A DNA stretch of 64,000 bases. It comes from Acidobacteriota bacterium. GTDB lineage: Bacteria; Acidobacteriota; Vicinamibacteria; Vicinamibacterales; UBA2999. The DNA is taken from assembly GCA_031376505.1 (NCBI GenBank), contig JANMDX010000256.1, positions 8,682 through 72,681 on the forward strand, given 5' to 3'. Shown here piece after piece: positions 11,147-43,775 of this stretch. The position numbers and the translations under genes are program-made. Position 1 is the first letter of the stretch. Each line of letters opens with the position of its first letter. A model generated the notes under the pieces. That model saw only the letters and a program-made list of their open reading frames with translations, had not been told where the DNA came from and did not search any database.

Positions 11147-12217
11147 ATGTTGGCCGCAACTGCCGAAGCACAACTGATTGGGGATAGCCCCGCCGTCGCC
11201 GATCTCCGCACGGACATCGAGCGCACGGCACGGTCCGACGCCAAGGTGCTCATCACCGGGGAGAGCGGCGTGGGCAAGGAGCTGGTCGCACGGTCCGTAC
11301 ACGCCCACAGCTCGCGGGCGTCGAAGCCGTTTGTGGCGGTCAACTGCGCGGGCCTGCCGGAGACACTGCTCGAATCGGAACTGTTCGGGCACGTCAAGGG
11401 CAGCTTCACGGGCGCCTACCGTGACAAGCAAGGCAAGCTTGAAATGGCCGACGGCGGCACGCTCTTTCTCGATGAAGTCGGCGAGATGACCCTGCGCATG
11501 CAGGGCCTGCTGCTGCGTTTCCTCGAAACCGGCGAGTTGCAGAAGGTCGGCGCCGACCGGGTGCGCGCTACCGTCAGCATCCGCGTCATCGCCGCGACCA
11601 ATCGCAACCTGCGCGAGCTCATCGCGCAGCAGGCGTTCCGCGAAGACTTGTTCTACCGGCTCAACGTGATTCACCTGCTGGTGCCGCCCCTACGCGAGCG
11701 ACGCACCGACATTCCCGACCTCGTGCAGCGCTTTCTGCTGCGCAGCAGCGCGACTGGCCACTACGCGATGCGGTCGGTATCGCCAGAGGCCATGGACGCT
11801 CTGTGCAAGTACTCCTGGCCCGGCAACGTGCGCGAACTGCAGAACCTCGTCGAGCGGCTCGTCGTGACCTGCCAGCGCGAGATCGCGCTGCCCGACGACC
11901 TCCCGCCGGAGATCCGGCTGCTGCCCTTCGGCGCTTATCGGCCGCGGCGCGAACGCCGGCGCACGGTGTCCGACGAGCTGTACCAGAAGCTCGTCGACAC
12001 CGGCGAGTCGTTCTGGACGCTCGTCTATCCGCTCTACATGCAGCGTGAGATCACCAGAGGCCATCTGCGCGACCTCGTGCGGAAGGGCCTTCAGGAGGCC
12101 CGCGGCAACTATCGGATCGTCGTGCGCATCTTCAATATGCCGACGGGCGACTACAAACGGTTCCTCAACTTCCTGCGCACTCACGAGTGCCAGGTCTCGT
12201 TCAAGGAGTTCCGATGA
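11147..12217 (+). CDS. Sigma-54-dependent transcriptional activator without receiver/sensor domain (paralog 1)
   Basis: The AAA+ domain starts about 10 residues from the N-terminus: Walker A GESGVGKE, Walker [10 protein letters not shown], sigma-54 contact loop [26 protein letters not shown]-terminal HTH-like tail [25 protein letters not shown]. Confidence 0.9.
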   Translation: MLAATAEAQLIGDSPAVADLRTDIERTARSDAKVLITGESGVGKELVARSVHAHSSRASKPFVAVNCAGLPETLLESELFGHVKGSFTGAYRDKQGKLEMADGGTLFLDEVGEMTLRMQGLLLRFLETGELQKVGADRVRATVSIRVIAATNRNLRELIAQQAFREDLFYRLNVIHLLVPPLRERRTDIPDLVQRFLLRSSATGHYAMRSVSPEAMDALCKYSWPGNVRELQNLVERLVVTCQREIALPDDLPPEIRLLPFGAYRPRRERRRTVSDELYQKLVDTGESFWTLVYPLYMQREITRGHLRDLVRKGLQEARGNYRIVVRIFNMPTGDYKRFLNFLRTHECQVSFKEFR

Positions 12218-12855
12218 CGGCCCCCATGTTCGCAATCCTGTCGCTGTGCGCGTCGGTGTCCGTGTCGGCGCAGTCGAGCGGAGCACCAGTGCCCCGCCAG
12301 CCGGCGCCCGCGACGGCGGCCGCCCAGAAGCCGCCGGCAGTGCCGGACATACCTGACGGCGTCACGCCGCCGTCCGACTACGTGATCGGAGCCGAAGACG
12401 TGCTCGACATCATCGTCTGGCGCGAAAAAGACCTTTCGGCCGAAGTCATGGTGCGCCCCGACGGGCTGGTCTCACTGCCGCTGCTGAACGACGTGCAGGC
12501 CGGCGGACTCTCGGTGGAGCAGTTCCGCGAGCGCGTCGCCACCGCGGTCGCCAAGTTTGTCGAGTCACCGAGCGTGACGGTGATCGTGAAGACGATCAAC
12601 AGCCGCAAGGTGTACGTCATGGGCGAAGTCATGAAGCCCGGCCCCTATCCTCTGACCGCGCCAACCACCGTGCTGCAGTTGCTCGCAGCCGCGGGCGGAC
12701 CGACGCCGTTTGCGGACGTGAAAGACATCAGCATCGTGCGCACCGTCGGGGCCAAGACCGTGCGTCTGCCCTTCAACTACAAGGAAGTGGCACGCGGCCG
12801 GAAGATCGAGCAGAACGTGCTGCTTCGTCCCGGCGACACGGTGATTATCCCATGA
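12214..12855 (+). CDS. Polysaccharide export protein (Wza/EpsE-like, periplasmic/OM)
   Basis: Signal peptide MTAPMFAILSLCASVSVSAQ. Poly_export-type motif (YVIGAEDVLDIIVWREKDLSAEVMVRPDGLVSLPLLNDVQAGGLS) followed by an SLBB-like part. The ATG at 12214 overlaps the previous stop (ATGA). Confidence 0.9.
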   Translation: MTAPMFAILSLCASVSVSAQSSGAPVPRQPAPATAAAQKPPAVPDIPDGVTPPSDYVIGAEDVLDIIVWREKDLSAEVMVRPDGLVSLPLLNDVQAGGLSVEQFRERVATAVAKFVESPSVTVIVKTINSRKVYVMGEVMKPGPYPLTAPTTVLQLLAAAGGPTPFADVKDISIVRTVGAKTVRLPFNYKEVARGRKIEQNVLLRPGDTVIIP

Positions 12856-14132
12856 CGTCTTGTCGAGGCCTGATCGGTTTGGCGATCGTTGGATGCAGCC
12901 TCGCGATCGCGGACGCCGAAGCACAAACCGCGCGGCCGCCATCGTCAGGCCTTCAGGCCACTGGAAACATCTACGGCGGGTACGACGCCCCCCTCTTCGA
13001 CAACACCTCCACCAACGCCTTCAATCCCACGGGTCAGGGATTCGCTGGCGGAGATGTGAATCTAGACTACTTCCGGCCGGGCCGCCGGGTGTCGCTGGGG
13101 ACTGCGGTGATGGCGTCGAATCGGTACTACCCCGACTCCACGCCGTCGACGGCACCTTCGTACGTCGCGTCGCTCTCGCTCAGTTCTGTGAGTCGAGGAC
13201 GCTGGTCCTGGGTACTCGGACAGTACGCACAGTACGCTCCACTGTCGGCCGCCACGCTGTTTGCCGGCGGAGCGGCGAACCCGTCGCTGGGTGGCACTCT
13301 GAGCGGGGCGATTCTGGCTGGATCCACGAATTTTCAGATCTCGACCATTCGCCAGGTGGATATCAATACCGCGGCCAACGTGGCCTACTCCGTCAGCCGC
13401 CGGACGCAGGTGTCGCTGGCTACCATCGTCGGAACTCAGCTGCAAATCGACTCCACGCAGCCGAACGCGGTTCGGTATGACGGGCGCGTACGACTCTCAC
13501 GAGAAGTGACACGCAACATGCGGGCCTATGTCGGGTACGGACTGGCTGAGGTGCGCGTCCCGGCCCGGGGCGCGGCCCCAAGCTTCGCGACGCGGATTGA
13601 TGGCTACGACTTTGGAATCGACTTCTCGCGGCCGTTCCAACTGACACGAAACACGACCATCGGCATTCGAACGGGCGTCGTCAAGGTGCCCAATGCCGGC
13701 CGGTCTGAATTCACGGCGGTCGGGGCCGCAACCCTCGACTACAAGGTGACGGGCAGCTGGAGCGCCCAGCTCGCCGCCACTCGCGATGCGCGTTTCGTGC
13801 AGGCGTATCGAAACGCCGTGGTGTTCTCCGGCGTTTCGCTGTCAGTCGGCGGGCAGCTCGCGACCCGCCTGGGCGCCGCGCTAAACGCCAATTACTCATC
13901 GGGGCGCATCAACATCGCGCCCGCGCCTGTCGAATTCGACTCGGCCTCGACCTCCGCGCGGTTGCGATACGACGTCACGCGGACGGCTGGACTGTTCGCG
14001 GAATACAACCTGTTCCGGTCGCGCTTCGACGCGAGCAGCTCGCTATCTGGATACCCGACCGGGGCGTTCGGACGCCACGGTGTGCGCGCTGGACTGTCCC
14101 TTGGGGTCAGCCCGTTCAGTAGACGACCCTAG
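12852..14132 (+). CDS. Putative outer-membrane beta-barrel protein of the EPS locus
   Basis: Signal peptide (MTSCRGLIGLAIVGCSLAIADAEA). Alternating, Gly/Ser/Thr/Tyr-rich composition typical of OM barrels. Its position between the exporter and chain-length genes matches PEP-CTERM loci. ATGA overlap with the previous gene. Confidence 0.6.
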   Translation: MTSCRGLIGLAIVGCSLAIADAEAQTARPPSSGLQATGNIYGGYDAPLFDNTSTNAFNPTGQGFAGGDVNLDYFRPGRRVSLGTAVMASNRYYPDSTPSTAPSYVASLSLSSVSRGRWSWVLGQYAQYAPLSAATLFAGGAANPSLGGTLSGAILAGSTNFQISTIRQVDINTAANVAYSVSRRTQVSLATIVGTQLQIDSTQPNAVRYDGRVRLSREVTRNMRAYVGYGLAEVRVPARGAAPSFATRIDGYDFGIDFSRPFQLTRNTTIGIRTGVVKVPNAGRSEFTAVGAATLDYKVTGSWSAQLAATRDARFVQAYRNAVVFSGVSLSVGGQLATRLGAALNANYSSGRINIAPAPVEFDSASTSARLRYDVTRTAGLFAEYNLFRSRFDASSSLSGYPTGAFGRHGVRAGLSLGVSPFSRRP

Positions 14133-22178: not shown

Positions 22179-24200
22179 CTACGGGACGACTACGTGAATG
22201 TCACTGCTGGGTGCGCTGGATCCCGACGCGTTCGTCGCTCGAACACGGATCCAGTAGCTGCCAGGCGGCACCGCGCCGGCGGCGAAGCTCATCCCCTGCA
22301 CCGTCAGTGTGCCGTAGTCGCTCAGGCCAGACTGCGAGCCCACCTCGAGTCGAAAGCTCGAGGCTTGCGGCCCGTCGTTGCTGGCATGCCATGTCAACGT
22401 CACGCTGCGTGAAGTACCGACCGTGGCCTGAAGATCGGTTGGATAATTCGGCGGGTTCCCGGAACCACCGCCAACGATCACCTGCACCTCGTTCGAGGCC
22501 GGACTCGTTCCCGTGCGGCCCACCGAGCGAAGCCTGAAGTAGTACTGCCCCGCCGGCAGGTTCGAGGCAACGTAGCCGCCGAGTGTGCCGAGCGATGCGC
22601 CCGAGACGTAATCCGACAGGCCCGGCGCACTACCCGCTTCGACCAGAACATCGCTCACGTTCGGATCGGTCGTCGGGTCCCAGTTCAGCGCCACGGTGGT
22701 GCCGCTGGCCGTGACGCGAAAATTCGCTGGCGCGGCCACCGTGCTCCCTGCCCCGAGCGTGACGACCAATTCTCGCGACTCGCCGCTACTGCCATCGGCG
22801 TAGCTGGCCCGCAGGCGCACGTAGAATGTCCCGCTCGCCTGGATCGGCAGTGTAAGGCTCTGTAGGGACGCCGACAGCGACAGGACGCCGACGTTGGACG
22901 ATGCCGGCGACGTGCCCGCCTCGAGCAGGTACCCGACCAGGCCAGCCACAGGCGGAGCGGTCCATGAAAATGACAGTGAGGATGGACCGACCTGCGCCGA
23001 GAAGCCGAGGGGGCCTTGGGGCTGCAGGACGGCGTTGGTAATCTCGTAGACGTGCACGGTGGGCGTCGCGCCCGCCGTGTCGCCGGTGACATAGAGCCGG
23101 CGGGTCGCCGGGTCGTAGGTGGCGCCGCGAATCGTGGCACTGCCCGCGTTGTCCATGTCGGTCAGGGTCCACGTCGCATACGGCCGCACGTCCCACGGCT
23201 GCTTGGCGCCCTGCTTCACCGCCAGCAAGTCATTGGCATCGTAGGCCCACACCTGATGCCGATACGGATACCCGTGTGCGCCCTTGTCGCTGCTGGTCGG
23301 GTCGTAGCACCAGAGGTCGCCGGCCGGATTGGGCGTCATGTGCAACGCTTGATTCGTCGTGCCGGCGCCGTAGCAGAACGCGCCGCCCTGGCGGCCGACG
23401 AACAACACGGACCGCGTACCCGCAGGAAACGCGACGCCGCCCACCTTCGTCGAGCCGTTGTAGAGGGGCCCCGGACCCTCATACGTACCAATCGTCTGAT
23501 GCGCCTGGGGATAACCGACCAGCATCGTGGCCGGCACCGACGGTTGCGTGCCCAACTGGTCGGGATCAAAGACGCTCACCGACGGGCCATAGCTTGACCG
23601 CGAGATGATCGCAATGCAGCACTGCCCCGTCAGCGCCGGCCCGCCGAGCAGCGTGCGCCACTCGGTCGGAACGACGCCCATGTAGCCCGCCACCAGCCCC
23701 GGCTGCTCCGTGCCCACCTTGTAAGGGCCGGACGCCGTGTCAATCGCCGCGCCCACGAAGTGACTGCTCGTGGCCGTGCCGCCGCCGTCGTAATACGCAT
23801 ACCCCGACAGAATCACGCGGCCGTTCCAGGCCAGCACGCCGCCGAGCAGCTTGGCGTTGGGGTCGTTGGGGTTGATGGCATTCAGGTTCGGGACCCCCCG
23901 GCACGGCTCGAGCTGGGTGGCCACCCCGCCGATGGCGGGAATCCGCACCCGCACCACGGCGGCGCCATAGACGCAGCCGTAGTACAGCGACGTGCCGTCG
24001 GCGCCCATGCTGAGGGCCGTCCCGCCGTAGGTCAGCAGCGTGCCGTTACCGTCATCACTCGGCAGCGTGAACTGCCCCTGATAGGCGAAGTTACCGGCCT
24101 GGACGAGGTGCTGTTGTGGCGCGGTCTGCGCAGTTGCCGTCACTGCCGACGCCAGGCACAACACCACGAAGCTGAGAACGATGAGGCGACGCGTCAGCAT
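22179..24200 (-). CDS. Secreted protein: unknown ~370-aa N-domain + three FN3-like modules (paralog 1)
   Basis: Signal peptide MLTRRLIVLSFVVLCLASAVTATAQ. The N-domain is near-identical to that of 24450..26861. Three ~90-aa modules end in Y/F-x-R-[LV]-R-A..N..G.S motifs (FN3-like). No PEP-CTERM tail. Confidence 0.8.
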   Translation of the reverse strand: MLTRRLIVLSFVVLCLASAVTATAQTAPQQHLVQAGNFAYQGQFTLPSDDGNGTLLTYGGTALSMGADGTSLYYGCVYGAAVVRVRIPAIGGVATQLEPCRGVPNLNAINPNDPNAKLLGGVLAWNGRVILSGYAYYDGGGTATSSHFVGAAIDTASGPYKVGTEQPGLVAGYMGVVPTEWRTLLGGPALTGQCCIAIISRSSYGPSVSVFDPDQLGTQPSVPATMLVGYPQAHQTIGTYEGPGPLYNGSTKVGGVAFPAGTRSVLFVGRQGGAFCYGAGTTNQALHMTPNPAGDLWCYDPTSSDKGAHGYPYRHQVWAYDANDLLAVKQGAKQPWDVRPYATWTLTDMDNAGSATIRGATYDPATRRLYVTGDTAGATPTVHVYEITNAVLQPQGPLGFSAQVGPSSLSFSWTAPPVAGLVGYLLEAGTSPASSNVGVLSLSASLQSLTLPIQASGTFYVRLRASYADGSSGESRELVVTLGAGSTVAAPANFRVTASGTTVALNWDPTTDPNVSDVLVEAGSAPGLSDYVSGASLGTLGGYVASNLPAGQYYFRLRSVGRTGTSPASNEVQVIVGGGSGNPPNYPTDLQATVGTSRSVTLTWHASNDGPQASSFRLEVGSQSGLSDYGTLTVQGMSFAAGAVPPGSYWIRVRATNASGSSAPSSDIHVVVP
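23022..24128 (-). repeat. Copy A of a ~1.1-kb near-identical direct duplication (N-domain coding segment)
   Basis: The DNA aligns by eye with 25671..26789 with only scattered substitutions, e.g. ...GTAGACGTGCACGGTGGGCGTCGCGCCCGCCGTGTCGCC... is present in both. Confidence 0.85.
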
Positions 24201-24262
24201 GCAAAGGGCTCCCCGGCTCGTAAAGTATAGGGGCCCTGAGATTCGAGCCTCAATGCTTTACA

Positions 24263-24277
24263 GCATAAACAAGGCCA
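24263..24277 (-). promoter_or_regulatory. Candidate sigma-54 (-24/-12) promoter for 22179..24200
   Basis: The minus strand reads TGGCCTTGTTTATGC, with GG and GC at the canonical 10-nt separation. It lies about 63 nt upstream of ATG 24200. The -12 element is ATGC rather than TTGC. Confidence 0.45.
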
Positions 24278-24449
24278 CACTGGCGCGCCGAAGGAAACCC
24301 GGTCTCTGTATGCGTGTTTTGGTTTAATTTTGGACTGTTTCGTCTATTTTTCGTCAGGCAGCCAGCGAGCCGACCGCTACCGTCCGTTTCAATTCTAGAC
24401 AGCAGCAGTCGGAATTTGCTCGGTTGCGCCTGCTCCAGACACTCCGTGG

Positions 24450-26861
24450 CTACTGGACCTGTACTCTGACTTCGTTCGAGGCACGGCCCACGCCGCAGCC
24501 GTTCATTGGACGGACCCGGACGAAATAGACCCCAGGCGGCACGTCATTCAGGAATGACCCGCTGCGCGCCATTGAGGCCTTCCCGAAGTTGGCCGCACCA
24601 GACGCCGAGCCCGCTTCGATGAGGTAGCTCACCGGAGCCAATTGGTCATCCGCTTTCGCTGTGTCGGGGTCGAGCGGCGTCCATCCCAGGCTCACCCGCC
24701 GTCCAGTCACGACCGACTTGAGCTTGGTGCGGAAGCGAGGCGTGACGCAGGTATCGCCGCCCACGTCGAAGCGAAGGTCGGTGGTCTCGCTCGGACCGAC
24801 ATCCGACAACACCGTCACCCGCGCAAAGTAGCTGCCCTTCGGTAGCCGGCTCGACGACGTCGTCGTGTCCGCGGTCAGCGTCTGCACGTCGCTTGCGCCC
24901 ACCGTCGTACCGACCGCCACCGAGTAGCTCGAGCCGCTGCAGCCATCGGCGTCGGACCAGGTCAGGTTCACGAGTCCGCTCAAGGAGGTCGCAGACAGCC
25001 CCGACACGCGGCGCGGCTTGGTCGAGCAGCCCACCGACACGACCACTTCCTTGGAGGCCGCGCTGGTGCCGTTGGCATTCTTCGCTCTGACCCGCACGTA
25101 GTACTTGCCGATGCCCACGTTCGGCACCGACACCGTCGTAACAAGCCCGACCGGAGTGGAGTACACGGTCTGTCCTGGTGCCACGCCGGCCTCGACCAGG
25201 TAGCTCGTCGCGATCCCGCCGGTCAGCGGCGGCGACCAACGGAGCGACACGGTCGACTGCTTCACCGCCCCGTAGACCCCAACCGGCGCCCCAGGCAACG
25301 CCGCCGGTGTGACGCACCCTTCGTCTACCAGACCGTCGTTGTCGTTGTCGATGTTGTCGCCGCAGATCTCCACCTTGACCTGCACGCAGTTCTCGTCGAT
25401 CAAGCCGTCGCCGTCGTTGTCGATGAGGTCACCGCACACCTCCACGGTCAGCGTGACGCAGTTTTCGTCGATGAGGCCGTCGCCATCGTTGTCGAGACCA
25501 TCGCCGCAGACCTCAACCACAATCGGCGTGCAGCCCTCGTCAACCAGGCCATCCAGATCGTTGTCAATGCCGTCACCACACACCTCGGCGACCGGCGTCG
25601 GCGCGCAGCCCTCGTCAATCAGGCCATCGCCGTCGTTATCAATGCCGTCACCACACACCTCGGTCGGGGCCGTGGGCTGCAGTACGGCGTTGGTGATCTC
25701 GTAGACGTGCACGGTGGGCGTCGCGCCCGCCGTGTCGCCAGTGACGTAGAGCCGTCGCGTCGCCGCGTCGTAGGTGGCGCCGCGAATCGTGGCGCTGCCC
25801 GCATTGTCCATCTCGGTCAGGGTCCACGTCGCATACGGCCGCACGTCCCACGGCTGCTTGAGGCCCTGCTTCACCGCCAGCAGGTCGACGGCGTCATACG
25901 CCCACACCTGATGCCGATACGGGTACCCATGCCCGCCCTTATCGCTGTTGGTCGGGTCGTAGCACCAGAGGTCGCCGGCCGGATTGGGCGTCATGTGCAA
26001 CGCTTGATTCGTCGTACCGGCGCCGTAGCAGAACGCGCCGCCCTGCCGGCCGACGAACAACACGGACCGCGTACCCGCCGGAAACGCCACGCCGCCCATC
26101 TTCGTCGAGCCGTTGTAGCCTCCCGCCCCAGACCCTTCGTACGTGCCAATCGTCTGATGCGCCTGGGGATAGCCGACCAGCATCGTGGCCGGCACCGACG
26201 ACTGCGTGCCCAGGTGGTCGGGGTTGAAGACGCTCACCGAGGGGCCGTAGCTCGACCGCGAGATGATCGCAATGCAGCACTGCCCCGTCAGCGCCGGCCC
26301 GCCGAGCAGCGTGCGCCACTCGGCCGGAATCACGCCCATGTAGCCCGCCACCAGCCCCGGCTGCTCGGTGCCCACCTTGTAGGGACCGGACGCCGTGTCG
26401 ATTGCCGCGCCCACGAAGTGACTGGTCGTCGCCGTGCCGCCGCCGTCGTAATACGCATACCCCGACAGAATCACGCGGCCGTTCCATGCCAGCACGCCGC
26501 CGAGCAGCTTGGCGTTGGGATCGTTGGGGTTGATGGCATTCAGGTTCGGGACGCCCCGGCACGGATCGATCTGGGTGGCCACCCCGCCCATCGTGGGAAT
26601 CCGCACCCGTACCACGGCGGCGCCATAGACGCAGCCGTAGTACAGCGACGTGCCGTCGCCGCCGATCCCTAGTGCGTTAGCACCCCAGGTCGTCTGGACG
26701 CCCGCGGAATCCTTGTCGGGCAGCGTGAACTTGCCCTGATAGGCGAAGTTGCCAGCCTGCACCAACGGCAGTTGTTGCGGAGGCGTCTGCGCGGCCACTG
26801 AAGCTGCCGCGGCGAGACTCAGAAGGGCGACGAGAAGGGCTGTGGCTGACCGTGAATGCAT
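24450..26861 (-). CDS. Secreted protein: same unknown N-domain + five Cys/Asp-rich repeats + three FN3-like modules (paralog 2)
   Basis: Start placed at ATG 26861 (MHSRSATALLVALLSLAAAASVAAQ is a signal peptide). The longer track ORF (to 26969) would run across the promoter motif. No PEP-CTERM tail. Confidence 0.8.
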   Translation of the reverse strand: MHSRSATALLVALLSLAAAASVAAQTPPQQLPLVQAGNFAYQGKFTLPDKDSAGVQTTWGANALGIGGDGTSLYYGCVYGAAVVRVRIPTMGGVATQIDPCRGVPNLNAINPNDPNAKLLGGVLAWNGRVILSGYAYYDGGGTATTSHFVGAAIDTASGPYKVGTEQPGLVAGYMGVIPAEWRTLLGGPALTGQCCIAIISRSSYGPSVSVFNPDHLGTQSSVPATMLVGYPQAHQTIGTYEGSGAGGYNGSTKMGGVAFPAGTRSVLFVGRQGGAFCYGAGTTNQALHMTPNPAGDLWCYDPTNSDKGGHGYPYRHQVWAYDAVDLLAVKQGLKQPWDVRPYATWTLTEMDNAGSATIRGATYDAATRRLYVTGDTAGATPTVHVYEITNAVLQPTAPTEVCGDGIDNDGDGLIDEGCAPTPVAEVCGDGIDNDLDGLVDEGCTPIVVEVCGDGLDNDGDGLIDENCVTLTVEVCGDLIDNDGDGLIDENCVQVKVEICGDNIDNDNDGLVDEGCVTPAALPGAPVGVYGAVKQSTVSLRWSPPLTGGIATSYLVEAGVAPGQTVYSTPVGLVTTVSVPNVGIGKYYVRVRAKNANGTSAASKEVVVSVGCSTKPRRVSGLSATSLSGLVNLTWSDADGCSGSSYSVAVGTTVGASDVQTLTADTTTSSSRLPKGSYFARVTVLSDVGPSETTDLRFDVGGDTCVTPRFRTKLKSVVTGRRVSLGWTPLDPDTAKADDQLAPVSYLIEAGSASGAANFGKASMARSGSFLNDVPPGVYFVRVRPMNGCGVGRASNEVRVQVQ
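25314..25661 (-). repeat. Five in-frame 72-bp (24-aa) tandem coding repeats, E-[VI]-C-G-D-x-[IL]-D-N-D-x-D-G-L-[IV]-D-E-[GN]-C
   Basis: EVCGDGIDNDGDGLIDEGCAPTPVA / EVCGDGIDNDLDGLVDEGCTPIVV / EVCGDGLDNDGDGLIDENCVTLTV / EVCGDLIDNDGDGLIDENCVQVKV / EICGDNIDNDNDGLVDEGCVTPAA. Confidence 0.9.
25671..26789 (-). repeat. Copy B of the ~1.1-kb near-identical direct duplication
   Basis: See 23022..24128. Same orientation, about 2.65 kb apart. Confidence 0.85.
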
Positions 26862-26952
26862 GGTGTCCCCGATGCTGATGATTCGTGTGCGGTGAGCCAC
26901 GTGCAGTCGGGGGAACTGCGTGGGCAATGACTCCTTCACGCCCGCCGTAAGA

Positions 26953-26967
26953 GCAAGTGGTGTGCCC
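26953..26967 (-). promoter_or_regulatory. Candidate sigma-54 (-24/-12) promoter for 24450..26861
   Basis: The minus strand reads GGGCACACCACTTGC (then TC): GGCAC-N5-TTGCT with canonical spacing, about 92 nt upstream of ATG 26861. Confidence 0.6.
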
Positions 26968-27169
26968 ACGTCGGGGGACGGCCGCTAAGTGATTGCGCGC
27001 GCAGGCACTTGCGCCGCTCCCGCGGCACAAGCTCAGCCGGCACGCCACAACCGATCTCGACCCGGGACTGACGAGACTGTCAGTGAGGGTGGCGGGGCGA
27101 ACGCCGTACGCGCCGGCGCAGCGCGCGCGGAATCACGTGAGTACGGCGATCGGATTTGTAATCGGGTGG

Positions 27170-31737: not shown

Positions 31738-34299
31738 TCAGAGAGCCCAGAGAAGTAGCGCGACAGTCGCGACGCCAACAGCCGAGACGACCAGGCGCCA
31801 CAGTCGCCTCACCGCAATCGCCCGCTGCGGTACGAACCTCGACGGGGCCGGCCACGACGTGGCTTCCGGCTGGTAGAGCGGCAGGCGCACGACGCAGTCT
31901 TCAAACCATGGCCGCGAGAAGCCATACGACAACAAGAGCACAACCGGCCTGGTACGGGTTCGCGTGGGCATTGCCGCCAGCATCTCGAGCGGGCGGCGGT
32001 GGAACCCGCCCGCGCAATCGAGAAAGCGCCGGCGTTCGAGGTCGGTCCCCGCATAGACCGCAGCCAGGTCGAAGACTTCCGACTTCCGGACATCCTGAGC
32101 GGCCCACGTCTCGGTCGGGAATTCGAGACGCTCTGGATGCTCGAGATACAGATGCTCGTGGTCGGCCATCCAGCGCGCGTAGTGCAGTAGCACGGTGCGC
32201 GCGTAATCCCAGCGCCCGTCGCAGCGGCCAAGTTCTTGGCGCGTCGACAAGTAGCGGCCGAGTGCCTGAAGAAGCACGGTATAGGACCAGCGCCGTTCGG
32301 CATCGAGCAGTGCCAGCGCGTCGAGGTCATCGCGGGGATGCACGACTCGCCGCACGAGCTCGTCGGCCTTTGCGATGAAGCGCTCGTCACGAATCAGCCG
32401 GTGCGCGTCAAGCAGCGTGAGAATCGCATTGGCGGCCCCGCGGCCAGGTCCGTGGTAGTCGCCAGACACGGTGGCGCTGGCACCGCCCGTCGGCGATGAA
32501 CACAACCAGGGCAGTGGCCAGCGGGCGCGGCGGCCGTCATCCATCGCAATCACCCAGTTGGCCAGGCTCAGCACCGCGTCGCGGCTGGTGGGATCGCCGG
32601 TCAGAAAATAGTGCAGGAGCAGGCCATGTGAATAGCAGTGCTCATTGGACGGCCCTCCACCGTCGAGCCCGGCATCCCGAGGATACGTGCGGTGGGTTGA
32701 CCGGCCGGCAGCGGTGTAGTGGGCGGTGTGCCAGAACAGCCCGCCGTTGTAAGCCGCGCGGTCCTGGGACGTCCAGTAGACGTCGATGTGCGAGACGTGC
32801 CTGGCCAGGTCGCGCGCCAACTGCCACCAGCGGTGATCATCGTGCCGCAAGGCCTGCAACGCGAGTCCGTACACCGCATCGTACTGATTGTTGTAGTGCG
32901 AGACGATCTGGCGGCCTGGCTCCGGCCCGTTCTCGTGATCCGCATACAGCTCGCCGTAGTGCCGCCATCCGTACTCGTCGATCCGCTCGCGCTTGGCGGC
33001 AAAGGTGTCGGCGCCGTCTAGCGCCGCGCCAATCAGGCGCTCATACACTGCATTCTCGCCCGGGCGAGCCAGCTCCAGGCCGGGCACGAGTTCGGCGGCG
33101 GCGACCGCCTGCACCTCGGGCAGGACGCTCGCGGGAGCGCGACGCCACTCGAGTGGCAGGTCGGTGACGCCATCCAGTCCCCAGCCGATCCAGAACTCGT
33201 AGTCGCAGCGCTCTCCGCCCTGGAGCTCGTGCGGATCGCGACCCGCCGGCAAACACGATACGTCCAGAGTGCCATCGGCGTGCACGTCCAGGGCCTTGGG
33301 GAACACCTCCCAGAAGCGTTCGGCCGCAACGCAGAGCATGCCGCTCGAACCCTCGGCCACCAGCACCGGATTTGCGCGCAGCCCTGCGACGCCGGCGGCA
33401 CCGGCCCGCCCGGTATACCCGCGATGGTCGAGGCTCACGTTGCCGTCGCAATTGAGGTGCGCGGGACTCTTCCAGTGTTCGCCGCCGCTCGAGTGTTGTG
33501 TCACCGCGAACGGCAAGGCGACCTCAGACAGGGGCGCGTCGTGTTCGAGCGACGCGCGGCACGTGTGAAGCGCCAGGGGGAGCGGCACACGAACGACGGC
33601 GTCGCGCAGCAGCACCGACCCCGCATCGCCCAGCTCCCAGAGCCCGCCGGGATGCAGGGCAGCCTTCGGGTTGTGCAGGCAGAGCTCCACGCCCATGACC
33701 GGCAGGCCGGCCAGGAACGTGAGCCGTAGACTCAGATTGAGCTGCACGCCCTCTGGACCCGACGCGTCCCCGTCGACGCGCAGCACGACCCGGAGTGGAC
33801 CGGTCACCTCGGCTTCAATGGCAGCGAGGCGCACGGGAATCGACCGCCCTTCTGCGTCGCGCAGCAGCACGGACGCACGCGGCGCGTCGATCACCGGCCG
33901 CCCCTCGTCGAGCACGGCCGTGAACGGATGGCCGAGGTCCAGATCCAGGTCGATCTGGCTTGAGCCGCTCGTGACCGACGCCCGACGCGCTGACAGGCTG
34001 AGGGCGACCGGATACGGCGCCACAGGTCCTGCGAGATCGTCGCGCACGAGAATCTCGGCGCCTCCAGGCGGCAGGTCGACGCGCGTGTCGAGCAGGGCCC
34101 AACGCACGCTGCCATCGGACCAGTGTTCGAGCGCGCGGGCCTGCGTGGGCAGCGCCTCGCCTGCCACCGCCACGAGCGTGGCGACGTCGCGCACGCGGCC
34201 GCGGGGTAGGGGCACGCCGACAGTAATCGGCTCGCCTCGCCTCGGCACGGCCGATGTGGGCCGCGCCGTCAAGCGGCCCAGCACACCGGGCGCCATCAT
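31738..34299 (-). CDS. Large three-domain protein, tentatively PcRGLX/YetA-like (polysaccharide lyase-like alpha/alpha toroid), with C-terminal TM anchor
   Basis: The N-terminus EPITVGVPLPRGRVRDVATL...EHWSDGSVRWALLD resembles the RIFT-barrel start of that family. The centre has DEYGWRHYGELYADHE...HYNNQYD...GGLFWHTAHY. The C-terminus has the hydrophobic helix LWRLVVSAVGVATVALLLWAL. Start at the ATG pair 34296/34299. Confidence 0.6.
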   Translation of the reverse strand: MMAPGVLGRLTARPTSAVPRRGEPITVGVPLPRGRVRDVATLVAVAGEALPTQARALEHWSDGSVRWALLDTRVDLPPGGAEILVRDDLAGPVAPYPVALSLSARRASVTSGSSQIDLDLDLGHPFTAVLDEGRPVIDAPRASVLLRDAEGRSIPVRLAAIEAEVTGPLRVVLRVDGDASGPEGVQLNLSLRLTFLAGLPVMGVELCLHNPKAALHPGGLWELGDAGSVLLRDAVVRVPLPLALHTCRASLEHDAPLSEVALPFAVTQHSSGGEHWKSPAHLNCDGNVSLDHRGYTGRAGAAGVAGLRANPVLVAEGSSGMLCVAAERFWEVFPKALDVHADGTLDVSCLPAGRDPHELQGGERCDYEFWIGWGLDGVTDLPLEWRRAPASVLPEVQAVAAAELVPGLELARPGENAVYERLIGAALDGADTFAAKRERIDEYGWRHYGELYADHENGPEPGRQIVSHYNNQYDAVYGLALQALRHDDHRWWQLARDLARHVSHIDVYWTSQDRAAYNGGLFWHTAHYTAAGRSTHRTYPRDAGLDGGGPSNEHCYSHGLLLHYFLTGDPTSRDAVLSLANWVIAMDDGRRARWPLPWLCSSPTGGASATVSGDYHGPGRGAANAILTLLDAHRLIRDERFIAKADELVRRVVHPRDDLDALALLDAERRWSYTVLLQALGRYLSTRQELGRCDGRWDYARTVLLHYARWMADHEHLYLEHPERLEFPTETWAAQDVRKSEVFDLAAVYAGTDLERRRFLDCAGGFHRRPLEMLAAMPTRTRTRPVVLLLSYGFSRPWFEDCVVRLPLYQPEATSWPAPSRFVPQRAIAVRRLWRLVVSAVGVATVALLLWAL

Positions 34300-34570
34300 C
34301 GGCCGACGGGCGCAGCTGCTGGGCAGCGGAACGCGAGACTGTGACAGATGGCCGCCATGTGTGCTCGGGTGTGCAGCCGGCCGCGCGACACGCGCACGGC
34401 GACGAAATTGTGCGGCGTCGAGCCCGCAGGTGCCGGATGAATTGCGCAGCAAACCGCCGACAACGGCCCGATCGTTACGATATCATACAGCGTATTCTGT
34501 CGCTCACCATGTCAGGCCTCCCGATTCCGACGCCACATTTGCGTCGGTCCATTCCGCGGTCGAGGCGTTC

Positions 34571-35743
34571 GTGATTGCCAGCAGCCGGCCCGTCCGCGTG
34601 CTGGAACTGCGCAGTGTGCGTGGCACGGGCGGCGGTCCGGAGAAGACGATCCTGCTCGGCACCGCGCTGACCGACCGGCGCAGAGCCGAGATTACGGTCT
34701 GCTACATCCGCGACGTGCGCGACGGCGTATTCGGCATCGACGCGTGGTCGAGGTCGCTGGGCATCCCGTATGTCGAGGTGCCCGAGCGTCGTTCGATCGA
34801 CCCGACGGTACTACCGGCGCTCAGGCGCATCGTGCGCGACCGCCGGATCGACATCGTGCATGCGCACGAGTACAAGACTGATCTGCTGGGGTTGCTGCTG
34901 GCGCGGCTTGACGGCGTGATCCCGCTGGCCACCGCACACGGCTGGACGGGGCACTCCTGGAAAGAACGGCGCATCTACTATCCCGCCGACCGCTGGCTGC
35001 TGGCGCGATACACGCAGGTCATTGCGGTGTCCGAAGAGATCCGGCAGGTGCTCATCAGGTCTGGGGCGCGTCCCGAACGCGTGACGACCGTGCTGAATGC
35101 GATTGACCCCGCGCAGTTCCGGCGCAACTCCGCGCAGGAGCCCTCGGCCCGTGCGGCGCTCGGGCTGCCGGCCGACGCCGTGGTGTTCGGCGCCGTGGGA
35201 CGGGCCGAACCGCAGAAGCGGTTCGACCTGCTCATCGAGGCGTTTGCCGTAATTGCCCGCGACCGAGCTGGGGCCCAGCTGGTCATCGTGGGCGAGGGGT
35301 CGAGTCTAGCGGCTCTGCGGCAACAGGTTGAGCATCTGGGAGCGACCGGCGCCCGCGTGCACCTGCTGGGGCATCGCAACGACGTCCCGATGCTGCATCA
35401 TGCGTTCGACGTGTTCGTGCAGTCGTCCGACTACGAGGGCACGCCCAACGCTGTGCTCGAGGCAATGGCCCTCGGTACGCCCGTTGTCGCCACCCGAGCC
35501 GGTGGCACTGTCGAGATCGCCCACGACGGCCGGCACGGCTTGCTCGTGGACTGCGGAGATCTCGACGGACTGGCACGAGCGATGGCCGCACTGGCCGACG
35601 ACCCGGCGCGCGGACGCGCCCTGGCCAAGGCCGCTCGCCAGCGCGTCGAAACCGACCTGTCGTTTGCTCGACGGGTCGCGATGCTCGAAGACCTCTACGA
35701 ACGGCTCATGCACGACTGCGGCGCGAGGAACGCCCGGGCATGA
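34571..35743 (+). CDS. Glycosyltransferase family 4
   Basis: VRVLELRSVRGTGGGPEKTIL N-terminus and a C-terminal EGTPNAVLEAMALGTPVVATRAGGTVEI motif. GTG 34571 is the first plausible start. The upstream 300 codons of the track ORF are antisense to the neighbouring gene. Confidence 0.85.
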   Translation: MIASSRPVRVLELRSVRGTGGGPEKTILLGTALTDRRRAEITVCYIRDVRDGVFGIDAWSRSLGIPYVEVPERRSIDPTVLPALRRIVRDRRIDIVHAHEYKTDLLGLLLARLDGVIPLATAHGWTGHSWKERRIYYPADRWLLARYTQVIAVSEEIRQVLIRSGARPERVTTVLNAIDPAQFRRNSAQEPSARAALGLPADAVVFGAVGRAEPQKRFDLLIEAFAVIARDRAGAQLVIVGEGSSLAALRQQVEHLGATGARVHLLGHRNDVPMLHHAFDVFVQSSDYEGTPNAVLEAMALGTPVVATRAGGTVEIAHDGRHGLLVDCGDLDGLARAMAALADDPARGRALAKAARQRVETDLSFARRVAMLEDLYERLMHDCGARNARA

Positions 35744-41508: not shown

Positions 41509-42219
41509 CTAGGCGGTCTGAGCCGCGGCCCGACGGCGACGGCGACGAGCCGCCGCGGCGCCGGCCAGGCCAGTCGCGAGCAACACCATGCTGGCTGGTT
41601 CCGGCACGACGGTGGGCGCCGTGTTCACGAACGACTCGCTATTGCCTTCGCCGCCAATCGACTGCACGTGTGTGCCGATGCGCAGGTCGCCGGTCGACAG
41701 GCTGGTCAGCAGGCTGGCGAACGTGGAGCCCTGGTTGAGCGTGAAGATCAGCCTCAGCCACTCACCCGGGTTGACGCCGTTTGGCGATACCGGTGGCCGG
41801 GCGCCGACGCCGTCGGTGGCCCGGAACTGGATGCCGTTTCCGCCCGGCAGGTTCCGGTTACCGGCGAGCTCTCTGAAGCTCACGCCGCTTGACCCGTTCA
41901 TGCTGCTCAGCGCGATCAGCGTCGGATTGGGTTGGTCGAAATATATCTGGGTAATCGAGGACGCGCCCGGGCCCGTGTTGCTGAACAGGAACTCCACCGA
42001 GCCATTTCCCAGGTCGGTCAGTGCGGCACTGAGCTGCGACTGCCCGATGGCGCAGCTGGACGCGGCGTTGTTGGTCACGCACGAGAATCCGAGCGTGGCA
42101 GCCTCGGTCCGGGCCGTTCCGAGCGCAAACACCGTGGCAACCGCGGCGGCCGACAACGCAATCCGGGAAACTGACATTCGCATCACCAAGGCGCTCATCC
42201 TTTTCTCTACGGTAGCCAC
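41509..42219 (-). CDS. PEP-CTERM sorting-domain protein (putative exosortase substrate)
   Basis: C-terminus VVPEPASMVLLATGLAGAAAARRRRRRAAAQTA = PEP motif + TM helix + Arg cluster. N-terminal signal (…RIALSAAAVATVFALGTARTEA). The start is ambiguous: GTG 42219, or ATG 42198/42183/42177. Confidence 0.9.
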   Translation of the reverse strand: MATVEKRMSALVMRMSVSRIALSAAAVATVFALGTARTEAATLGFSCVTNNAASSCAIGQSQLSAALTDLGNGSVEFLFSNTGPGASSITQIYFDQPNPTLIALSSMNGSSGVSFRELAGNRNLPGGNGIQFRATDGVGARPPVSPNGVNPGEWLRLIFTLNQGSTFASLLTSLSTGDLRIGTHVQSIGGEGNSESFVNTAPTVVPEPASMVLLATGLAGAAAARRRRRRAAAQTA

Positions 42220-42274
42220 ACTTCACAGAGGAAGATCCGCCTGCGGTGCGGTGTCCGTTGACGCATATTGAACA

Positions 42275-42289
42275 GCAATAACGCTGCCA
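42275..42289 (-). promoter_or_regulatory. Candidate sigma-54 (-24/-12) promoter for the PEP-CTERM gene/exosortase operon
   Basis: The minus strand reads TGGCAGCGTTATTGC (TGGCA-N6-TTGC, canonical spacing). It lies 56 nt upstream of the first possible start codon. Confidence 0.65.
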
Positions 42290-42483: not shown

Positions 42484-42614
42484 GTTCAGGTCTTCCGTCC
42501 AGACTTTGTTCTGCTCTTTCCTGACAGATAGTCGCTCGATTCTTGTTCTTGTCCGCAAACTGCTGATATTCTGACGTGGTAGTGGTCCGTTCAGACTACG
42601 GGTCGACCAAATCA

Positions 42615-43775
42615 ATGCAGCCAGTCGACGCTCCCCGAGACATACCGGCGCCCCAGCCTCGCCAGCAGGTCCTGATTGGACGGAGCCAGGCTCTGAAGGT
42701 CGTACATCAGGAGATCGAGTACGCCGCGCGGTCCGACGCGAAGGTGCTTGTCACGGGGGCCAGTGGCGTGGGCAAGGAAGTGGTCGCGCACCTCATCCAC
42801 ACCCGCAGCCGGCGGCGCCACGCGCCGATGCTTACGATCAACTGTGCGGCCATGCCTGACTCGCTGCTCGAGTCCGAGCTCTTCGGACACGCCCGGGGTA
42901 GCTTCACCGACGCGTATCGCGACAAGCGCGGGCTCTTTGAAGCCGCCAATGGCGGCACGGTGTTCCTCGACGAAGTCGGCGAGATGTCACTCCGCATGCA
43001 GGCGTTGCTGCTCAGATTTCTCGAAACCGGGGAGATTCAGCGGGTGGGCGACGAGCGCAATCGCGCCAACGTCAACGTCCGCGTCGTGGCCGCGACGAAT
43101 CGGCGTCTGCCCGAACGCATCCAGAGCGGCGACTTCCGCGAAGACCTCTACTATCGGCTCAATGTGATTCACATCACGATTCCGCCGCTGCGCGAACGTC
43201 GCGACGACGTGGCGCCGCTGCTCGAGCACTTCCTGCGGCAATTCGCGGTCGAACACGGCGTGCCTCTGCCGGCAACCGCCGACGACGCGGTGACCGCGCT
43301 CGAAGCGTACGACTGGCCCGGCAACGTTCGAGAGCTCCGCAACATCGCCGAGCGTCTGACCTGCCGCTGCCCCGGCGGCGTGATTCGCATCGAAGATCTG
43401 CCGGCGGAAGTACGGGCTGTGGCTGTGCCTCCCGACGCGCCGGGGACGAAGCCAGGCGCGACCGCTCCGGCGCAAGCCTTGCTCGATCGGATCCTGCTCA
43501 GGGGTGAATCGTTCTGGGATGTGGCGTACGAACCGTTCATGGCCCGCGACTTGACGCGTGAGGACGTGCGGCACCTGGTGCGCGTGGGGCTCGAACAAAC
43601 CCGCGGGAACTACAAGGCGCTGGTGCAGCTGTTCAACATGGAACCGCAGGACTACAAGCGGTTCCTGAATTTCCTGCGCAAATACGGCTGCCACATGCCG
43701 TTCCAGCGATTCCGGATGGCGCCGGGTCGCGGCGACAGCGGCGCAGCCGGTTCGAGCGGTAAAGAGCCCGTCTGA
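42615..43775 (+). CDS. Sigma-54-dependent transcriptional activator without receiver/sensor domain (paralog 2)
   Basis: About 25 residues precede the AAA+ core: Walker A GASGVGKE, Walker [10 protein letters not shown], contact loop [26 protein letters not shown]-terminal tail [25 protein letters not shown] matches paralog 1. ATG 42615 is preferred over GTG 42576. Confidence 0.9.

Follow-up and report, generated by a model that had tools for sequence, protein, structure and literature searches.

Two tandem secreted proteins of an acidobacterial XrtA/PEP-CTERM exopolysaccharide locus share a predicted beta-propeller head, apparently homogenised by gene conversion

We analyzed a 64,000-nucleotide stretch of an Acidobacteriota genome (contig JANMDX010000256.1, order Vicinamibacterales; hereafter the window) which carries, within a locus of the XrtA/PEP-CTERM exopolysaccharide (EPS) type, two adjacent minus-strand genes, referred to as copy 1 and copy 2. 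Their predicted products share an N-terminal domain (the head) of approximately 370 amino acids (aa) and differ in their C-terminal parts (the tails). Comparison of these genes with their homologues indicates that repeated gene conversion, restricted to the approx. 1.1 kb coding for the head, a predicted beta-propeller, homogenises the tandem copies. The fold, the type of the locus, the tail modules and the conversion between paralogous genes each belong to a known kind. What is new is that (i) no named family includes the head domain, although it has thousands of members, (ii) acidobacterial XrtA loci encode it twice, as a conserved component, and (iii) concerted evolution is confined to this domain.

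The heads of the two proteins are approximately 90% identical (BLASTP), and their DNA is 89.7% identical over 1118 bp (23010-24121 versus 25666-26779; blastn); no third copy of the domain was found within the window. Identity falls from >90% to approximately 30-50% at aa 25 and at aa 394, the signal peptides are unrelated (proportion of synonymous differences, pS, 0.76), and the fn3-like modules of copy 2 are approximately 29% identical to those of copy 1 over 291 aa. In the tail of copy 1, Pfam revealed PF00801 at residues 390-480 (32.2 bits, cut-off 23.5) and PF00041 at 587-669 (42.6 bits, cut-off 25), the middle module (491-562) gave a Kre9_KNH-like match under its Pfam cut-off, and a PDB sequence search returned fn3 matches to titin and fibronectin. 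The acidic repeats of copy 2 matched NF033662 (71.3 bits, cut-off 41) in five stretches and PF11617 (39.8 bits, cut-off 27). Their unit is C-x-D-x-x-D-N-D-x-D-G-x-x-D-E-x-C (the count of five was taken from the translation), and its Dx[DN]xDG-like motif may bind Ca2+. These results agree with a sequence-only reading of the stretch, made without database searches, which had described near-identical heads on divergent tails at essentially the same coordinates, with three FN3-like modules in copy 1 and five Cys/Asp repeats plus three FN3-like modules in copy 2.

Both N-termini look like Sec-type signal peptides, with a hydrophobic core followed by ATA/Q in copy 1 and VAA/Q in copy 2. Neither protein gave a Pfam match to PF07589, and the two C-termini read ...DIHVVVP and ...EVRVQVQ; with no C-terminal PEP-CTERM signal, copies 1 and 2 are not exosortase substrates by the sorting-signal criterion. 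The earlier description of both as secreted proteins lacking a PEP-CTERM tail was therefore upheld. Copy 2 has an alternative in-frame GTG start at 26969, which would add 36 residues (839 aa), but the ATG at 26861 is preferred because a conserved sigma-54 element falls within the GTG extension. The G+C content of the window is approximately 64-71% per 2-kb segment. The coordinates of the features are collected in Table 1.

Table 1. Features of the tandem genes and of the surrounding locus (positions in the window)
Feature	Position	Strand	Description
XrtA/PEP-CTERM EPS island	11147-43775	both	delimited by Pfam and NCBIfam matches
Copy 1 ("downstream" paralogue)	22179-24200	-	673 aa: putative signal peptide, predicted propeller domain, three immunoglobulin (Ig)-like modules; G+C at third codon positions (GC3) 0.83
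Copy 1, tail	22182-23021	-	aa 394-673; three PKD/fn3-like Ig modules
Copy 1, N-terminal predicted beta-propeller domain	23022-24128	-	aa 25-393; unnamed family
Copy 1, core high-identity (putative gene-conversion) tract	23030-24005	-	85-98% identity per 60 nt; identical runs of up to 70 nt
Copy 1, putative signal peptide	24129-24200	-	aa 1-24, MLTRRLIVLSFVVLCLASAVTATA, followed by Q; read from the sequence
Copy 1, sigma-54-type -24/-12 element	24262-24277	-	TGGCCTTGTTTATGCT; three mismatches, GG-N10-GC kept
Copy 2 ("upstream" paralogue)	24450-26861	-	803 aa from ATG: putative signal peptide, predicted propeller, five acidic Cys/Asp repeats, three fn3-like modules
Copy 2, fn3 part of tail	24453-25313	-	three fn3-like modules, aa ~517-803; PF00041 at 532-607, 27.2 bits
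Copy 2, acidic double-disulfide repeats	25314-25676	-	five, aa ~396-516, CGDGIDNDGDGLIDEGC type
Copy 2, N-terminal predicted beta-propeller domain	25677-26789	-	aa 25-395
Copy 2, sigma-54-type -24/-12 element	26952-26967	-	GGGCACACCACTTGCT; one mismatch to TGGCAC-N5-TTGCW
PEP-CTERM gene, sigma-54-type element	42274-42289	-	TGGCAGCGTTATTGCT; one mismatch, 55 nt upstream of the gene

Database searches assigned the head to no family, as the sequence-only reading had found by recognition alone. A Pfam and NCBIfam scan of both full proteins at E<=1 gave no match on the N-domain (residues 1-393). A PDB sequence search with a single protein returned only fn3 matches, and the same search with a 114-sequence profile returned none at E<=10. 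In a census of weak Pfam matches (E<=10) among 106 stand-alone members of the family, nothing was recurrent except Glu_cyclase_2 (propeller-type glutaminyl cyclase), which appeared in 3 of the 106 with a best E of 0.038 and was judged not significant; SGL (PF08450-type), GH43 and GH130 were not matched in these members even at that threshold. Exact-sequence look-ups of copy 1 and of its nearest homologue (P0001) yielded no record, and literature searches on exosortases with propellers, on Vicinamibacter EPS, and on vicinal disulfides with propellers and lyases yielded no paper on the propeller family.

With the 114-sequence alignment as input, AlphaFold2 produced an all-beta model of the N-domain with approximately 23 strands (predicted local distance difference test, pLDDT, 93.6; predicted template modelling score, pTM, 0.91), from which we confidently predict a beta-propeller fold. 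The propeller probably has six blades, because the DSSP string contains these approx. 23 strands and four recurring "GGxA-turn-LxxxG" strand pairs; the N-terminal strand (38-45) probably closes the last blade. A Foldseek comparison with the PDB and with viral predicted structures, as the earlier reading had proposed, returned only generic propellers among the matches listed (for the PDB, 50 of the 142 with E<=0.001), with template modelling (TM) scores of 0.3-0.57 and 7-13% identity; the highest TM was 0.44 when query-normalised and 0.57 when target-normalised. The kinds of proteins listed were luciferin-regenerating enzyme/Drp35 (SGL lactonases; E 1e-6 to 5e-5, TM 0.33-0.45, identity 7-10%), GH43/GH130-type enzymes (5c0p, 3qc2, 3taw and 5a7v; TM 0.41-0.57, identity 7-11%), WD40 proteins, plexin sema domains and phage tail fibres. 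Like the six-bladed SGL-type proteins (luciferin-regenerating enzyme, Drp35 lactonase) and the five-bladed GH43/GH130 enzymes, which provided the best Foldseek matches listed (E 1e-6 to 1e-4), the head is modelled as an all-beta toroid. It differs from them in that TM reaches only 0.33-0.57 at 7-11% identity, with no Pfam match. Membership in the SGL and GH43/GH130 families was rejected on these grounds, and the matches to WD40 proteins and the other kinds were not accepted as evidence of membership, which leaves a likeness of fold class only. The fold class of the modelled domain is thus clear, and membership in a known family cannot be claimed.

In SGL-type and GH43/GH130 propellers, the functional residues are expected on one face. 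Among 114 sequences of the family of the head, H147, W181, C276 and C298 are invariant, and Y137, D138, S146, T191, C194, C195, S203, R263, D300, H309, Y313, D321 and D363 are conserved in at least 90%. C194 and C195 were lost jointly in seven of the eight cases of loss; we infer that they form a vicinal pair acting as a unit, separate from a C276-C298 disulfide. The conserved polar residues are non-repetitive along the domain, which fits a single functional site. When general propeller topology (B-C and D-A loops on the "top" face) is applied to the DSSP string, the model suggests that Y137/D138/H147, T191-C195 and D300 share one face over adjacent blades, forming a single site.

Five other Acidobacteriota genomes (loci L001, L002, L003, L004 and L006) have the same tandem pair at the same place, flanked by the amidotransferase gene on one side and the FemAB/acyltransferase genes on the other. 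All upstream copies have acidic repeats and fn3 modules, and all downstream copies have three fn3 modules. Within a position the tails are 54-86% (upstream) or 40-77% (downstream) identical, compared with approximately 30% between positions. The upstream copy of the window has five acidic repeats, compared with three in those of L002 and L003 and at least four or five in those of L001 and L004, and the length of this stalk therefore looks evolutionarily variable. Since the pair and its position-specific tails recur in five other genomes, the sequence comparison shows that the duplication and the tail differences arose before at least six Acidobacteriota genomes diverged, and it excludes an assembly artefact.

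The heads group differently from the tails. Their identity within a genome is 90% in the window, 79% in L004, 76% in L006 and 73% in L001, against 61-74% to the positional orthologues of other lineages. In a neighbour-joining tree of the N-domains (333 columns, 200 bootstraps), the two window copies cluster together (bootstrap 100), as do all copies of L004 and L006 with two dispersed third paralogues (bootstrap 100); the downstream copies of L002 and L003 group with each other (bootstrap 98) and have retained orthology. Synonymous divergence (dS; all values are rough because of the high G+C codon bias) between the upstream copies of the window and L001 is 0.43 in the tail (87% aa identity) and 0.97 in the N-domain (74% aa identity), whereas the two N-domains of the window differ from each other by a dS of 0.28 and a nonsynonymous divergence (dN) of 0.06. 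A dN/dS of about 0.2, the ratio that the sequence-only reading had wished to see, points to purifying selection on the N-domain. Because the N-domains group by genome and the tails by position, and because the dS of the window N-domains is lower than that of the orthologous tails, we attribute the near-identity of the heads to gene conversion. The partner of the conversion tract in copy 2 lies within 25666-26779, and the first approx. 120 nt of the domain are only 48-77% identical.

The sequence-only reading had left the choice between recent duplication with module shuffling and ongoing gene conversion, and had allowed for mis-assembly. An identity of approximately 90% over a sharply bounded 1.1-kb block could indeed have arisen by recent tandem duplication with swapping of tails, or as an assembly artefact. 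We consider this very improbable, since five independent assemblies contain the same pair with position-specific tails, and since the dS values run the wrong way, the window and L001 being closer in their upstream tails than in their heads while the two window heads are closer still. Moreover, dS along the window pair is a mosaic (0.51 for aa 25-100, 0.14 for aa 101-200, approximately 0.29 beyond), with saturated flanks. Recent duplication with shuffling and the artefact were both rejected on synteny, and of the alternatives offered only conversion has stood.

Concerted evolution of bacterial paralogues by gene conversion is known from tufA/tufB, rRNA operons, and the opa and pil loci. As in those cases, the converted segment groups by genome, the flanks keep their orthology and the tract has sharp boundaries. 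Unlike in those cases, the tract matches a single structural domain within a secreted protein of several domains, and conversion appears to recur in the lineage of the window and in the L004/L006 clade but not in L002 or L003. In the genomes of L004 and L006, a third, dispersed non-EPS paralogue (L012:10001-11200 and L008:10001-11188) groups with the "downstream" copy of the EPS locus; homogenisation or recent copying therefore seems to extend past the tandem pair in this clade.

The surroundings of the pair identify the locus, by NCBIfam equivalogs, as belonging to the XrtA/PEP-CTERM EPS type, in line with the EPS island proposed earlier. The models above their cut-offs are TIGR03109 (XrtA; 212.5 versus 208), TIGR03013 (474 versus 393), TIGR03006 (406 versus 276) and TIGR03019 (376 versus 260); TIGR03007, 03015, 03018, 03108 and 03097 are best hits, yet under cut-off. 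The island encodes (i) export and assembly functions (Poly_export, a chain-length determinant, an XrtA-associated ATPase, a tyrosine kinase and a Wzy-like ligase), (ii) biosynthetic and tailoring functions (a TIGR03013 priming transferase, a TIGR03006 deacetylase, a TIGR03019 FemAB-like protein, an acyltransferase, a TIGR03108-like amidotransferase and GT4 glycosyltransferases), and (iii) besides the two propeller genes, two sigma-54 activators, a PcRGLX-like protein, a TPR protein, EpsI (DUF3485), XrtA and a PEP-CTERM protein.

Each of the two genes appears to be a separate unit behind its own conserved sigma-54-type promoter. Only two one-mismatch matches to the sigma-54 motif occur in the window, ahead of copy 2 and ahead of the PEP-CTERM protein gene at 41509-42219, whose product, unlike copies 1 and 2, matches the PEP-CTERM model. 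As the window-wide count at up to two mismatches is not above chance (24 found versus 28.5 expected), the promoter assignment rests on conservation in the orthologous loci: GGGCAC/T-N5-TTGCT stands at the same distance from the upstream paralogue in L001, L002, L004 and L006, and GGC(C/A)x-N5-TTGC(T/A) at a similar upstream distance from the downstream paralogue in L001-L004 and L006. The motifs noted earlier ahead of both genes are thus conserved. A scan for sigma-70 promoters and terminators revealed nothing beyond chance. According to Haft et al. (2006, PMC1569441), PEP-CTERM genes stand as single-gene units, have long upstream regions and carry a sigma-54 motif. Copies 1 and 2 resemble the PEP-CTERM proteins of XrtA systems in all of these features, as well as in their locus and signal peptides, and differ from them in lacking the C-terminal sorting signal. 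Two Sigma54_activat proteins are encoded within the island (11147-12217 and 42576-43775, both on the plus strand). Both begin almost at the AAA+ domain (residues 10 and 33), and a receiver domain like that of the PrsR-type regulator of proteobacterial PEP-CTERM systems seems to be absent from these island activators.

The head belongs to a large family. More than 925 homologues were retrieved by a word-indexed search, all of them under the source name "hypothetical protein", and an exhaustive profile search found 3,779 clusters (50% identity) at E<=1e-3 and 1,620 at E<=1e-30. Most members are stand-alone secreted propellers of approximately 400 aa; in longer proteins the domain is N- or C-terminal and sometimes occurs twice per chain. 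One protein (P0121, 841 aa) comprises two complete propeller domains, 40% and 43% identical to copy 2. In 59 long members, the fusion partners were mostly Big_7, fn3, Big_13, PKD and Y_Y_Y, and occasionally Laminin_G_3, Beta_helix, dockerin, PA14, PG_binding, PL4 domain II and the Rha78A Ig domain, a set which, by sequence, resembles the accessory domains of secreted carbohydrate-active enzymes.

Among species-representative genomes we examined 77 family loci, all of them from metagenome-assembled genomes. They carry the labels Acidobacteriota/Vicinamibacterales, Chloroflexota, Myxococcota, Steroidobacteraceae, Nitrospirota and Acidimicrobiia, and in a few cases Saccharibacteria, Woesearchaeota and Elusimicrobia. 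Members on contigs labelled Saccharibacteria (L016, L035) or Woesearchaeota (L049) are 40-50% identical to the window domain, and could reflect horizontal transfer or mis-binning; some members with candidate-phyla-radiation or DPANN labels lie within very long proteins (1165-1347 aa). In 25 of the 77 loci, two or more EPS marker families were present within 10 kb, and an EPS-type neighbourhood was found in 16 of the 45 loci of at least 15 kb. The markers counted over the 77 loci were GT4 (22), Wzy-like (14), GT2 (13), PcRGLX-like (12) and amidotransferase (12), and the EPS-linked loci include genomes of Steroidobacteraceae, Nitrospirota and Acidimicrobiia. The EPS linkage of the family is therefore real but partial. 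In a second conserved acidobacterial site (L005, L007, L009, L011, L013, L014 and L020), family paralogues have no EPS-related neighbours and are accompanied by genes for a HerA-like ATPase, a MutS2-like protein, CarD, a YgjP-like metallopeptidase and a rhodanese-methyltransferase.

As to function, we infer that copies 1 and 2 are extracellular proteins which act on, or bind, EPS. The earlier suggestion of a glycanase, lyase or adhesin co-regulated with the EPS is still plausible and gains from the EPS island and the sigma-54 elements; it loses from the fact that neither the sequence searches nor the Foldseek matches listed link the domain to any carbohydrate-active or adhesin family, and from the minority of loci that are of EPS type. 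Our leading, still tentative, reading is that the propeller has a catalytic role on EPS. The heads would work outside the cytoplasm on the polysaccharide made by the island, through one conserved top-face pocket comprising Y137/D138/H147, the C194-C195 pair, D300/H309 and neighbouring residues, and would cut or modify the glycan much as secreted glycanases trim the EPS of other bacteria. The two different stalks would put the same activity into two matrix or cell-surface contexts, while the fit of both heads to one substrate would be maintained by gene conversion. We favour catalysis because many unique polar residues are conserved, most members stand alone, and the fusion partners are like those of carbohydrate-active enzymes. 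EPS-trimming enzymes encoded in EPS loci, such as ExoK/ExsH of succinoglycan, PslG, AlgL and BcsZ, are members of established GH or PL families and have different folds; ExoK and ExsH are two enzymes of overlapping activity on one polymer. They provide a working model by analogy, the window proteins being likewise predicted to be exported and encoded inside the biosynthetic cluster, with the difference that the window domain matches no CAZy-type Pfam family. A bolder proposal, which we regard as rather doubtful, is that the domain founds a hitherto unrecognised, phylum-spanning family of extracellular propeller enzymes with a new type of active site (an invariant His, conserved Asp and Tyr, and the vicinal Cys-Cys pair). 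This would be a new carbohydrate-active enzyme family tailoring XrtA-type EPS in soil Acidobacteriota and in other lineages represented only by uncultured genomes, its head kept uniform between differently anchored isoforms by conversion.

Several observations weigh against a catalytic role on EPS. Neither Pfam nor the Foldseek matches listed link the domain, by sequence or structure, to a family of glycoside hydrolases, lyases, esterases or lectins. The domain is 40-60% identical across phyla although EPS structures are lineage-specific, which argues for a common substrate over a locus-specific polymer. The locus already has a candidate glycan-cleaving protein, the 904-aa PcRGLX-like open reading frame (ORF). 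A Sec signal peptide alone is no proof of outer-membrane crossing, and the placement of the conserved residues on one face derives from topology rules and the DSSP string, not from coordinates. Finally, 52 of the 77 loci lack EPS markers, and 20 of these that were sampled show no recurrent neighbours: a pooled Pfam scan of their 104 neighbouring proteins gave 133 families, none of them in more than four proteins. There is thus no second conserved context in those 20 loci. With two thirds of the loci outside polysaccharide clusters, the function of the domain would not be intrinsically tied to EPS synthesis.

An EPS-binding scaffold on the model of Vibrio cholerae Bap1/RbmC is nearly as likely as a catalytic role. 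The propeller of Bap1/RbmC has eight blades and is combined with beta-prism lectin domains. This propeller is conserved, and a single site on it engages Vibrio exopolysaccharide (VPS; bioRxiv 10.64898/2026.08.03.742583). In the same way, the window propellers might be non-catalytic matrix scaffolds or adhesins which bind EPS at a single pocket, with the stalks tethering or cross-linking the polymer to cells, surfaces or matrix. As with Bap1/RbmC, there are two secreted paralogues with a common propeller head and different accessory modules, encoded with EPS genes. Their organization as single-gene units behind a sigma-54 promoter and a long intergenic region is that of structural PEP-CTERM proteins, Ig/fn3/Big tails predominate among the family fusions, and gene conversion would match both heads to the cell's own polymer. 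The likeness is, however, architectural: the window propeller, carried on fn3 and acidic-repeat stalks, probably has six blades, the sequence of the window domain showed no similarity to Bap1/RbmC, and Bap1/RbmC is absent among the 50 of 142 Foldseek PDB matches listed. Moreover, most members are stand-alone propellers of approximately 400 aa in genomes without EPS genes, and a monovalent binder would make a poor cross-linker; the many unique polar residues conserved across phyla are also a poor fit with lineage-specific EPS ligands.

Less probable, in our judgement, is that the propeller acts on another target altogether and that Acidobacteriota, with a few other lineages, have only drawn it into the XrtA/sigma-54 regulon. 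Candidate targets would be a widespread polymer of the environment, a component of the cell envelope, or secreted or PEP-CTERM proteins (the propeller being, e.g., a protein-modifying enzyme). The loci without EPS markers or recurrent neighbours speak for such a target, as do genomes with several paralogues, some of them at the conserved non-EPS site next to the HerA-like, MutS2 and CarD genes, and the high conservation across phyla, which extends to genomes with Saccharibacteria and Woesearchaeota labels. A weak lead in the same direction is the glutaminyl cyclase signal, but it is not significant and is unsupported by the PDB profile search or by the Foldseek matches listed. Against such a target, Wzy-like, amidotransferase and PcRGLX-like genes repeatedly accompany the family in several phyla, and the tandem pair holds a fixed position in the EPS island of six genomes.

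XrtA/PEP-CTERM loci drive the formation of floc and biofilm matrix in soil, sediment and wastewater bacteria, and almost all of their secreted, non-biosynthetic parts are without a known role. Because of its fixed position in the locus of six Acidobacteriota genomes and the promoter type of the regulon, the pair represents concrete candidates for factors that process or organise EPS, in a phylum which is a major, poorly cultured component of soil. A family of several thousand sequence clusters, included in no curated library, now has a confident structure model and a list of invariant residues. The domain-restricted conversion with diverging tails can be viewed as a natural experiment, which would mark the propeller, and not the tails, as the unit under shared functional constraint.

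Several other observations concern the neighbouring genes. A Rfam scan of the whole window gave no matches. The PcRGLX-like ORF (31738-34452, minus strand, 904 aa) has a PcRGLX-like N-terminal RIFT barrel (rhamnogalacturonan-lyase-like) as its sole Pfam match, and PcRGLX-like homologues lie near members of the propeller family in 12 of the 77 loci, from several phyla. Its product is a candidate for EPS cleavage and may be a functional partner of the propellers. A mechanically called GT4 ORF (33671-35743, plus strand) overlaps this gene by approximately 780 nt; its glycosyltransferase domain begins only at about residue 332, and its true start is probably much further downstream. Genomic context outside the EPS islands is exemplified by the Kofleriaceae homologue P0005, whose neighbours are AraC regulators and unknown genes. 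Finally, a 426-aa ORF (12852-14132, plus strand) between the Poly_export gene and the chain-length determinant matches no Pfam or NCBIfam model. It has homologues at the same position in L003 (50% identity) and L073 (26%), and is an unannotated conserved component of the locus.

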